Shown in pieces: positions 1 through 2,400 of a stretch of 2,400 nucleotides of DNA (its first letter is position 1; each line of letters starts with the position of its first letter). The notes under the pieces are model-generated. The model had not been told where the DNA came from and did not search any database. It was given only the letters and a program-made list of their open reading frames with translations. Source of the stretch: Escherichia coli (lineage in GTDB: Bacteria > Pseudomonadota > Gammaproteobacteria > Enterobacterales > Enterobacteriaceae); assembly GCF_003334255.1 (NCBI RefSeq), contig NZ_QOWU01000135.1; one strand, 5' to 3'. A program made the translations under genes and the position numbers.

Positions 1-22
1 AAAAACGAGTATTTTTAGTCAT
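1..22 (-). CDS. IS3-family transposase OrfA, N-terminal 7 codons only (MTKNTRF...), 3' part outside window
   Basis: ATG at 22-20 on the minus strand, preceded by AGAGG (minus strand, positions 35-31) at suitable spacing. The translation MTKNTRF is the characteristic start of IS629/IS1203-type OrfA. Only 22 nt are in the window, so the call rests on context. Confidence 0.5.
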
Positions 23-30
23 CCTGTTTA

Positions 31-35
31 CCTCT
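31..35 (-). promoter_or_regulatory. Shine-Dalgarno (AGAGG) for the IS3-family orfA
   Basis: AGAGG on the minus strand, 8 nt upstream of the ATG at 22-20. Confidence 0.45.
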
Positions 36-101
36 TTCTCAGGGAGTTTAGTCTCCAGGATTTCCGGGGCGGTTCAATCTGATATAGACGGACATCTAAG
101 T

Positions 102-527
102 ATGGAATTACAGGACTGGCGAAAAGAACCTCGTAAAAACTATTCGAATGAATTCAAACTTCGTATGGTGGAACTGGCATCACAACCTGGAGCTTGTGTT
201 GCACAGATTGCACGTGAAAATGGCGTCAATGATAATGTTATTTTCAAATGGCTCAGGCTCTGGCAGAACGAAGGGCGTGTTTCGCGGCGTCTTCCGGTAA
301 CGACCTCTTCTGACACTGGCGTTGAATTATTACCTGTAGAAATAACGCCGGATGAGCAGAAAGAACCTGTGGCGGCCATTGCGCCGTCTTTATCCACTTC
401 CACTCAGACCAGAGTCAGTGCCAGTTCCTGCAAGGTGGAATTCCGTCACGGTAACATGACGCTGGAAAATCCATCGCCAGAGCTGCTCACGGTGTTGATC
501 CGTGAACTGACCGGGAGGGGGCGATGA
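102..527 (+). CDS. tnpA: IS66-family TnpA (Orf1), small helix-turn-helix DNA-binding protein, 141 aa
   Basis: ORF track 102..527. The N-terminal segment NYSNEFKLRMVELASQPGACVAQIARENGVNDNVIFKWLRLW has the transposase-type HTH signature. It sits immediately upstream of tnpB and overlaps it by ATGA. The start at 102 is the first in-frame ATG but has a weak RBS; the frame stays open upstream, so the true start is uncertain. Confidence 0.85.
   Translation: MELQDWRKEPRKNYSNEFKLRMVELASQPGACVAQIARENGVNDNVIFKWLRLWQNEGRVSRRLPVTTSSDTGVELLPVEITPDEQKEPVAAIAPSLSTSTQTRVSASSCKVEFRHGNMTLENPSPELLTVLIRELTGRGR
514..518 (+). promoter_or_regulatory. Shine-Dalgarno (GGAGG within GGGAGGGGG) for tnpB, embedded in the 3' end of tnpA
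   Basis: GGAGG at 514-518, 5 nt upstream of the tnpB ATG at 524. Confidence 0.55.
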
Positions 528-874
528 TCTCGCTCCCATCAGACACTCGAATCTGGCTGGTTGCCGGCGTTACTGATATGCGTAAATCCTTCAACGGTCT
601 GGGTGAACAGGTACAACATGTGCTGGATGAGACCCCCTTCTCCGGTCACCTGTTCATCTTCCGTGGCCGACGGAGTGACATGATTAAAATCCTCTGGGCT
701 GATGCTGATGGTCTGTGCCTGTTCACCAAACGCCTGGAGGAAGGCCAGTTTATCTGGCCTGCGGTGCGTGACGGTAAGGTATCCATTACCCGCTCGCAGC
801 TGGCAATGCTCCTCGATAAGCTGGACTGGCGTCAGCCAAAAACATCCCGTCTTAACGCACTGACAATGTTGTAA
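524..874 (+). CDS. tnpB: IS66-family Orf2 / TnpB accessory protein, 116 aa
   Basis: ORF track 524..874. The translation MISLPSDTRIWLVAGVTDMRKSFNGLGEQVQ...IFRGRRSDMIKILWADADGLCLFTKRLE is the highly conserved IS66 Orf2 sequence. The ATG at 524-526 overlaps the tnpA TGA at 525-527, and a strong SD lies upstream. Confidence 0.9.
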   Translation: MISLPSDTRIWLVAGVTDMRKSFNGLGEQVQHVLDETPFSGHLFIFRGRRSDMIKILWADADGLCLFTKRLEEGQFIWPAVRDGKVSITRSQLAMLLDKLDWRQPKTSRLNALTML

Positions 875-904
875 AAATGTCATGGCCGGATTATAAAAAC
901 GGTC

Positions 905-2400
905 ATGAGTCGGAAATACCTCATTCGTATCACTGAGCTGGAAAGGCTGCTCTCTGAGCAGGCTGAAGCCCTCCGTCAGAAAGACCAGCAACTGAGTCTG
1001 GTTGAAGAGACGGAAGCCTTCCTGCGCTCTGCACTGACACGTGCCGAAGAAAAGATCGAAGAAGATGAACGGGAAATAGAACATCTGCGGGCTCAGATAG
1101 AAAAACTGCGCCGGATGCTGTTCGGTACCCGTTCTGAAAAACTGCGTCGTGAAGTTGAACTGGCTGAGGCTCTGCTGAAACAACGTGAACAGGACAGCGA
1201 TCGTTACAGTGGGCGGGAAGACGATCCTCAGGTTCCCCGCCAGTTGCGACAGTCGCGCCATCGTCGTCCGTTACCGGCACACCTTCCCCGTGAAATACAC
1301 CGCCTGGAGCCAGAAGAAAGCTGTTGCCCGGAGTGTGGCGGTGAGCTGGATTATCTGGGGGAAGTCAGCGCTGAACAGCTGGAACTGGTGAGCAGTGCCC
1401 TGAAAGTGATCCGCACAGAACGGGTAAAAAAAGCCTGTACAAAATGTGACTGTATTGTTGAAGCACCGGCGCCGTCCCGCCCGATAGAGCGTGGTATCGC
1501 GGGCCCCGGATTACTTGCCCGCGTGTTAACGGGAAAATACAGCGAACATCTGCCACTGTATCGTCAGAGTGAAATCTTTGCCCGCCAGGGTGTCGAACTG
1601 AGCCGGGCCTTACTCTCCAACTGGGTTGACGCGTGCTGCCAGTTAATGACACCGGTGAATGATGCCCTGTACCGTTATGTAATGAACACCCGCAAGGTTC
1701 ACACTGATGACACACCGGTAAAGGTACTGGCACCGGGTCAGAAAAAGGCGAAAACAGGGCGTATCTGGACGTATGTCCGGGATGATCGCAATGTGGGTTC
1801 GTCATCTCCTCCAGCGGTCTGGTTCGCGTACTCGCCGAACCGGCAGGGGAAACACCCGGAGCAACACCTCCGCCCCTTCCGGGGTATCCTGCAGGCGGAT
1901 GCGTTCACAGGTTACGACAGGTTGTTCAGTGCAGAACGTGAAGGTGGTGCACTGACAGAAGTTGCGTGCTGGGCCCATGCCCGGCGAAAAATCCACGATG
2001 TATACATCAGCAGCAAAAGTGCGACGGCAGAAGAAGCCCTGAAGCGAATCAGTGAACTGTACGCCATCGAGGATGAAATACGGGGATTACCGGAGTCAGA
2101 GCGTCTTGCCGTCAGGCAGCAGCGAAGCAAAGTGTTACTGACGTCGCTGCATGAATGGATGGTGGAGAAGAATGGTACGCTGTCGAAAAAATCCAGACTG
2201 GGCGAAGCGTTCAGCTATGTACTGAATCAGTGGGATGCCCTCTGTTATTACAGTGATGACGGTCTGGCGGAGGCGGATAATAATGCTGCGGAAAGAGCGC
2301 TTCGTGCAGTCTGTCTCGGAAAGAAAAACTCTTATGACCTTTGTCAAATATTGAGCCCAAAAAGACCTTACGCAGCTCCGGGAGCTTCGTTATATCGCGG
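905..2400 (+). CDS. tnpC: IS66-family transposase TnpC (DDE transposase), 3'-incomplete in window; the last ~23 codons diverge from the conserved family sequence
   Basis: Frame 2 is open from the ATG at 905 to the window end, and my own translation confirms it. The N-terminal region is a charged coiled coil (ELERLLSEQAEALRQKDQQL...IEHLRAQIEKLRRMLFGTRSEKL) containing the IS66 FGxxSEK motif. Candidate catalytic residues are D at 1706-1711 (HTDDTPV), D at 1898-1900 (ILQADAFTGY) and E at 2291-2293 (NNAAERALR). The start has no obvious SD. Confidence 0.85.
   Translation, partial: MSRKYLIRITELERLLSEQAEALRQKDQQLSLVEETEAFLRSALTRAEEKIEEDEREIEHLRAQIEKLRRMLFGTRSEKLRREVELAEALLKQREQDSDRYSGREDDPQVPRQLRQSRHRRPLPAHLPREIHRLEPEESCCPECGGELDYLGEVSAEQLELVSSALKVIRTERVKKACTKCDCIVEAPAPSRPIERGIAGPGLLARVLTGKYSEHLPLYRQSEIFARQGVELSRALLSNWVDACCQLMTPVNDALYRYVMNTRKVHTDDTPVKVLAPGQKKAKTGRIWTYVRDDRNVGSSSPPAVWFAYSPNRQGKHPEQHLRPFRGILQADAFTGYDRLFSAEREGGALTEVACWAHARRKIHDVYISSKSATAEEALKRISELYAIEDEIRGLPESERLAVRQQRSKVLLTSLHEWMVEKNGTLSKKSRLGEAFSYVLNQWDALCYYSDDGLAEADNNAAERALRAVCLGKKNSYDLCQILSPKRPYAAPGASLYR
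1322..1453 (+). other. Cys-rich zinc-ribbon motif within TnpC (CCPECGG ... CTKCDC)
   Basis: Translated cysteines at codons starting 1322, 1325 and 1334 (SCCPECGG) and at 1436, 1445 and 1451 (CTKCDC), spaced as in the IS66 transposase zinc-finger domain. Confidence 0.6.

Follow-up and report, generated by a model that had tools for sequence, protein, structure and literature searches.

Gene content and family assignment

The stretch of DNA analysed here, 2,400 nucleotides of an Escherichia coli contig and referred to throughout as the window, carries three genes on its plus strand in the order tnpA, tnpB and tnpC. The first, tnpA (102..527), encodes a 141-aa helix-turn-helix accessory protein that scores 83 bits against the NCBIfam model NF047595, "IS66-like accessory protein TnpA", for which the curated cutoff is 74, and that also matches PF01527 (HTH_Tnp_1) with an E-value of 8.7e-12. 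Its coordinates are the same as those of RefSeq protein WP_000422741.1 in locus L001, a copy 100% identical to the window. The second gene, tnpB (524..874), encodes a 116-aa IS66 Orf2-like accessory protein with 119.8 bits against NF033819 (cutoff 50) and a PF05717 (TnpB_IS66) match of 2.8e-36 over residues 9-106; it terminates at the TAA at 872-874 and corresponds to WP_000624652.1 in L001. The start of tnpC lies 30 nt past the tnpB stop. This gene (905..2330) encodes a DDE transposase that is truncated in the window and scores 401 bits against NF033517 (cutoff 180), with E-values of 9.8e-94 for PF03050 (DDE), 7.9e-12 for PF13005 (zf-IS66) and 3.9e-11 for PF13007 (LZ_Tnp_IS66). A 240-aa ORF on the minus strand (539-1261) runs antisense across tnpB and the start of tnpC and is probably spurious.

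The identities that had been proposed for tnpA and tnpB are borne out by the protein HMMs. The features expected of an IS66 member are found together at this locus, namely a TnpC with catalytic domain, zinc finger and leucine zipper, a TnpB, the helix-turn-helix of TnpA, and an ATGA junction with tnpB in the -1 frame. The assignment to IS66 is made by the protein HMMs and not by the overlap. In the original prediction the overlap had been taken to support the family assignment; it is consistent with IS66, but ATGA is the commonest co-directional gene overlap in prokaryotes and is therefore weak evidence for the assignment and not diagnostic of it. Comparison with solved structures gave no relevant sequence match for TnpB and only generic helix-turn-helix or designed-repeat matches for TnpA. 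To our knowledge, what the two IS66 accessory proteins do biochemically is still poorly defined.

State of the ISEc23 copy

Positions 77..2330 (plus strand) are an internal fragment of ISEc23, an IS66-family element of 2,532 bp, beginning at element position 61. From 77 to 2400 the window matches three E. coli plasmids (NZ_CP060062, NZ_CP060058 and NZ_CP116070) at 100% identity; the element is annotated there as ISEc23, and RefSeq annotates tnpA, tnpB and an ISEc23-family transposase on them. Searched with megablast, 4,320 of 5,426 complete E. coli genomes contained IS66-like matches.

The first 76 bp of the window (1..76, minus strand) are an inverted terminus of an IS3-family element (IS629/IS1203-like), with a 96-99% match to IS3-family transposase gene ends in loci L002 and L003. 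Read as the reverse complement, this end starts TGAACCGCCCCGG... and includes ATGACTAAAAATACTCGTTTT, which encodes MTKNTRF, the start of orfA. It adjoins ISEc23 position 61 and occupies the place of the left inverted repeat. The intact left end of ISEc23, 60 bp beginning GTAAGCGTAAACTGACC..., is found at L001 2941-3000 and not in the window. Neither of the GTAAGCG... terminal inverted repeats is present in the window, the first 60 bp having been replaced and the right end lying beyond it; these repeats are present in sibling copies (L001 from 2941 onward; L003 at 3438 and 5969). The intact reference copy of ISEc23 is L003 3438-5969, which is 2,532 bp long and carries an 8-bp duplication, CCTTTTTC, on both flanks. 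Any native upstream promoter region of ISEc23 is missing from the window along with the left inverted repeat. The joint between the IS3 end and ISEc23 position 61 was not found among the E. coli matches listed, of which the best full-length match has 97.2% identity and is in three pieces.

At the other side, the end of an ISEc45 element (IS110 family) is inserted in tnpC (2331..2400, no strand assigned), with the junction falling within 2331-2343; the alignment to intact ISEc23 ends at window position 2343. The TnpC of the window departs from the intact 537-aa protein of L003 after ...LGKKN, where the intact protein reads ...LGKKNFMFFGSDHGG.... In L001 and L002 the ISEc45 transposase gene lies directly next and the remainder of tnpC resumes past ISEc45; tnpC is an annotated pseudogene in L001. 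Besides the window, three plasmids and the chromosome of one strain, MB19, have ISEc45 inside tnpC, with coordinates of 5254-6700 in L001 and 6047-7494 in L002. In L001, some 14 bp of ISEc23 (L003 5749-5762) can be aligned at either side of the ISEc45 insert. The shared insertion could go back to one ancestral event, or ISEc45 could target IS66 tnpC in a site-specific manner.

The window copy of ISEc23 is defective. The junction between tnpA and tnpB is itself intact, but it stands in a dead element and is a relic there, because the left end has been displaced by the IS3-family element and tnpC has been cut by ISEc45. In L002 (3834-4265), an N-terminally extended tnpA, the annotated start of which lies inside the adjacent IS3-family element, has been named ‘accessory protein TnpB’ by RefSeq. 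This naming looks like an annotation error arising from the IS3 insertion.

The tnpA/tnpB junction

Window positions 521-527 read GCGATGA. The start codon of tnpB (ATG, 524-526) and the stop codon of tnpA (TGA, 525-527) overlap as ATGA at 524-527 on the plus strand, placing tnpB in the -1 frame with respect to tnpA. The Shine-Dalgarno sequence of tnpB, GGAGG at 514-518 on the same strand, lies within the 3' end of tnpA and is separated from the tnpB ATG by a spacer of 5 nt (519-523). The plus-strand ORF list gives the same two genes (102..527, 141 aa; 524..874, 116 aa), and the RefSeq CDS boundaries in the 100%-identical L001 copy, 3026-3451 and 3448-3798, correspond to window positions 102-527 and 524-874 with the same 4-nt overlap. 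Against the sequence, the ORF list and the RefSeq boundaries, the overlap and the GGAGG that had been predicted are exact to the base. A mis-indexed sequence, in which the two codons would not actually overlap, was also checked for; there is no indexing error, and the ATG and TGA truly overlap. Of the span originally quoted for the overlap, 521-527, the overlap itself occupies 524-527, and the GCG at 521-523 amounts to three extra bases.

The reading frame of tnpB is open only from 506, a TGA at 503-505 standing just before it, and the ATG at 524 is the sole canonical tnpB start upstream of the conserved domain. The in-frame ATG at 578 is too late to be the start, because the PF05717 domain already begins at residue 9. 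The tetranucleotide ATGA occurs 18 times on the plus strand of the window and is by itself unremarkable; what rises above chance is its placement between two HMM-verified genes, together with its conservation. As co-directional genes with a stop and a start that overlap by 4 nt, tnpA and tnpB are positioned as a coupled pair would be.

Conservation of the overlap among IS66 lineages

The overlap had been called a conserved hallmark of IS66-family elements, and comparison with other members of the family had been proposed as a check. The comparison covered 188 loci. From these came 122 distinct junctions that have an ORF close upstream, and 51 TnpB lineages, a lineage being a TnpB cluster at 80% identity. 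TnpB loci were taken from viral contigs and from a one-genome-per-species collection. At each locus the codon aligned with TnpB Met1 was located, and then the nearest stop that ends an ORF of 70 codons or more on the upstream side. Most of the sampled loci are alpha-, beta- and gammaproteobacterial, and the others come from a few Acidobacteria and from unclassified viral contigs; the sample does not extend to Firmicutes or Bacteroidota. DNA and protein searches of a plasmid collection, which returned at least 5,000 records each, mostly from Enterobacteriaceae, added no diversity.

In the first set (157 loci, 91 distinct junctions) the four-base overlap, N-TGA, was found at 77 of 91 junctions, as ATGA in 63, GTGA in 13 and TTGA in one; seven others have a 1-nt TGATG overlap, the remainder being rare variants or decayed copies. 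In a second set, of greater divergence, N-TGA was found at 27 of about 33 junctions, alongside in-frame abutting arrangements (TAG|ATG, and TAA followed by 3 nt and GTG). Counted by lineage, the 4-nt overlap is present in 43 of 51 (84%). Because GC-rich DNA gives long ORFs by chance, the upstream ORFs were verified with an iterated HMM seeded with the TnpA of the window. By this measure 121 of the 122 are TnpA homologues, and the stop falls at +1 in 104 of these 121 (86%). The start codon of tnpB varies between ATG, GTG and TTG; its position and the TGA are constant. TnpB homologues nearly always begin with ‘MI’, that is, ATG-AT. Junctions other than N-TGA are mostly short-range as well, with 1-nt TGATG overlaps, 7-8-nt overlaps or gaps of 0-3 nt, and these are arrangements of the kind associated with reinitiation. 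The description as a conserved hallmark thus holds for the lineages sampled, mainly Proteobacteria, with the 4-nt overlap in 84-86% of lineages or junctions.

Several departures from the usual arrangement could be traced to particular groups. An ISEc8-like enterobacterial group (L052, L058, L067, L073 and L050; junction at approximately 2481-2524) reads TGATGA. Because tnpA ends here at the first of the two TGA triplets, the overlap is a 1-nt TGATG; ATGA is still present, but the frame relation of tnpB to tnpA differs. In L189, L190 and L195 (junction at approximately 1470-1520), where TnpB is distant at about 50% identity, tnpA and tnpB are in the same frame and abut as TAG|ATG or TAA plus 3 nt plus GTG. 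An ISEc23-like copy in L018 (junction at approximately 2490-2510) has the tnpB ATG changed to ATA (GACGATAATCT), by which the start and the overlapping stop are both lost; this copy is decayed.

Shine-Dalgarno strength and possible independent initiation of tnpB

In the window, the predicted duplex of the tnpB Shine-Dalgarno sequence with the 3' end of 16S rRNA is -10.8 kcal/mol, a strength that no background window in the element reaches; the predicted duplexes of tnpA and tnpC are -3.2 and -3.3 kcal/mol. The starts of tnpA (102) and tnpC (905) look poorly initiated, with almost no Shine-Dalgarno sequence, a strong one being present at tnpB (524) only. Comparable values are found across the enterobacterial-like clade (median -9.8 kcal/mol), whereas the median over the 65 non-enterobacterial junctions is -2.7 kcal/mol, no different from coding background (rank 0.52). 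Among the 43 lineages with the overlap, the duplex is -6 kcal/mol or stronger in only 9 and weaker than -4.4 kcal/mol, which is essentially no Shine-Dalgarno sequence, in 28. The strong Shine-Dalgarno sequence that had been predicted at the junction is therefore real in the window and restricted to some lineages, not a hallmark of the family. Among the sampled lineages the conserved feature is the N-TGA overlap and not the Shine-Dalgarno sequence.

With such a site in front of it, tnpB might be translated independently off its own strong Shine-Dalgarno sequence, and the ATGA would then be mere compact packing with no regulatory role. The duplex of -10.8 kcal/mol, the strongest in the element, at a near-optimal spacing of 5 nt would suit this reading, as would the general frequency of such junctions, the 4-nt overlap being the commonest co-directional arrangement among 1,695 prokaryotic species and 707 of 2,987 (24%) E. 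coli unidirectional pairs lying at -8 to +6 nt (PMC10666635). The E. coli pair bioBF has the same overlap and no coupling (PMC6728339), and the hairpin that might mask the tnpB Shine-Dalgarno sequence bears no sign of selection (see below). However, diverse lineages retain the overlap in 84-86% of cases though the flanks and even the start codon change, and most lineages with the overlap have no Shine-Dalgarno sequence, so that independent initiation cannot be the general rule of the family. Moreover, when upstream ribosomes were stopped in five native E. coli pairs that overlap by 4 nt, the downstream gene lost its translation in four of them, although Shine-Dalgarno sequences were present (PMC6728339). 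We therefore consider uncoupled translation of tnpB an unlikely account of the junction. In the window itself, the very strong Shine-Dalgarno sequence makes some independent initiation of tnpB plausible, and coupling there could be partial, as it is in the E. coli pair menDH (PMC6728339).

Rejected frameshift fusion of TnpA and TnpB

With respect to tnpA, tnpB lies in the -1 frame, and TnpA and the OrfA of IS3 elements have the HTH_Tnp_1 domain in common. A programmed -1 frameshift towards the 3' end of tnpA (one candidate site is A-GGG-GGC, 516-522) might therefore yield a TnpA-TnpB fusion, like the OrfAB of IS3. The tRNA-Gly on GGG at 519-521 could re-pair at GGG 518-520, and five database proteins (P0136, P0154, P0181, P0228 and P0257, each the representative of a 50%-identity cluster) do combine a TnpA-like helix-turn-helix with TnpB. 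Yet an X-XXY-YYZ slippery heptamer was found in the accessible region at none of 91 junctions, and the tnpB frame is open for just 6 codons upstream of the ATG in the window. The G-run is not conserved either, close relatives having GGGGAAG or GGGGACG. Nearly all lineages keep a start codon at one and the same place in the alignment, and TnpB homologues begin with ‘MI’; a fusion would need neither. The fused database proteins resemble rare frameshifted copies or out-of-frame gene calls, and the TnpA+TnpB architecture occurs in none of the 120 closest clusters. With no slippery heptamers and with fused proteins that look artefactual, the frameshift fusion was rejected, and we regard it as highly improbable. 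Two further cluster representatives have unusual architectures, P0143 joining a TnpB N-terminus to a C-terminal part of TnpC and P0146 carrying an unrelated N-terminal region of 288 aa. All of these proteins look as if they came from copies with frameshifts or deletions, or from faulty gene calls, real fusions being less probable.

Predicted hairpin over the junction

Folding predicts an RNA hairpin at 507..542 (plus strand) that would hold the AUGA in its loop and bury the Shine-Dalgarno sequence, with predicted pairings of CUGA 507-510 with UCAG 539-542, GGGAG 513-517 with CUCCC 533-537 and GGG 519-521 with CUC 529-531. The GGGAG/CUCCC pairing recurs in nearly all of 26 enterobacterial junctions. 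If it were functional, the GGGAG of the Shine-Dalgarno sequence in the enterobacterial clade would pair with tnpB codons 4-5 (CUC-CCN, Leu-Pro) and would be left available to a just-terminated ribosome only; coupling would then be obligatory and 1:1, with tnpB silent whenever tnpA is untranslated. We consider this improbable. The predicted hairpin is no more stable than dinucleotide shuffles (z of -0.28 and -0.71), it lies at a median percentile of 0.26 among synonymous recodings of tnpB codons 2-7 (below 0.05 at 3 of 26 junctions), and its covariation of 0.146 is not in excess of the 0.136-0.142 obtained in three of the controls (those slid by -1 to -3). The pairing recurs because a purine-rich Shine-Dalgarno sequence is complementary to Ser-Leu-Pro codons under any codon choice. 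On the results with shuffles, recodings and covariation, a selected Shine-Dalgarno-masking hairpin was rejected as a demonstrated element, and the structure stays a prediction only.

Probable translational coupling of tnpB to tnpA

Taken with its conservation and with what has been measured for E. coli gene pairs of the same geometry, the ATGA junction most likely couples tnpB to tnpA by termination-reinitiation. A ribosome ending tnpA at the UGA at 525-527 would already sit over the AUG at 524-526, and contact of its anti-Shine-Dalgarno sequence with the GGAGG, 5 nt upstream, would keep the terminating ribosome in place. On arriving, such a ribosome would also have melted any local structure over the Shine-Dalgarno sequence and start codon, and it could restart on tnpB without leaving the mRNA. 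The output of TnpB would in this manner be tied to that of TnpA and both proteins would be made side by side, as might be expected of partners that act together. For tnpC separate initiation is probable, because its start lies 30 nt downstream of tnpB and has a weak Shine-Dalgarno sequence.

The description of the junction as a classical arrangement for translational coupling is borne out as regards the arrangement, pairs with a 4-nt overlap being coupled in four of five E. coli cases (PMC6728339). In that study the contribution of the Shine-Dalgarno sequence differed among pairs, and local structures were noted around the overlap. [quoted passage not shown] In IS66 lineages that have the overlap and no Shine-Dalgarno sequence, tnpB would seem to be without an obvious independent route of initiation, and since the overlap is kept there, we infer that tnpB generally relies on ribosomes coming from tnpA. 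In IS66, tnpB would then depend on tnpA translation, and TnpA and TnpB may form a complex. A literature search, the primary IS66 papers lying beyond it, found no experiment on IS66 translation and nothing mechanistic on coupling, the ATGA junction or the accessory proteins of the family.

Comparison with known systems

ISEc23 and the canonical three-ORF IS66 elements (IS66, IS679, ISEc8 and ISRm14) agree in gene order (tnpA-tnpB-tnpC), in their protein families and in the 4-nt ATGA overlap that sets tnpB in the -1 frame. The junction in the window does not differ from that of canonical elements; the copy around it differs in being without its left inverted repeat and in having an interrupted tnpC. 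Some relatives (L052 and L067 of the ISEc8-like group) have the 1-nt TGATG overlap instead of ATGA. The ATGA overlap of IS66 elements was reportedly described, by Han et al. in 2001 and Gourbeyre et al. in 2010, as suggesting translational coupling, with tnpC said to lie a short distance downstream. The tnpA/tnpB overlap is an ordinary arrangement. It confirms that the correct tnpB start has been annotated and has little import beyond annotation quality. By analogy with other overlapping pairs, it also suggests, weakly, a constant ratio of TnpA to TnpB synthesis and joint action of the two proteins, a hint that is useful because the roles of the accessory proteins are poorly defined. That N-TGA is conserved rather than the Shine-Dalgarno sequence is a small refinement to the textbook statement, and it fits reinitiation better than independent initiation across the family.

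[quoted passage not shown] 2019, PMC6728339) likewise have ATGA, a Shine-Dalgarno sequence in the upstream gene and predicted local structure. For these pairs coupling was measured, whereas for IS66 tnpA/tnpB it is deduced. The orfA/orfB genes of IS3-family elements resemble tnpA/tnpB in the HTH_Tnp_1 domain of the upstream protein and in the -1 frame of the second gene. IS3 elements produce a fusion transposase by programmed -1 frameshifting at a slippery motif of the A-AAA-AAG type with a downstream structure; an AL1L pseudoknot is annotated in the IS3-family elements of L002 and L003. The ISEc23 junction is unlike these in having no slippery heptamer, an overlap of only 4 nt and a downstream gene with a conserved start of its own. 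The istA/istB genes of IS21 are said (by Mahillon and Chandler in 1998) to have an ATGA-type overlap that is read as translational coupling. The successive genes of rit recombinase trios are also joined by ATGA stop/start overlaps, which have been read as translational coupling (PMC2864759). In both rit and IS21 the protein families and the transposition chemistry are unrelated to those of IS66.
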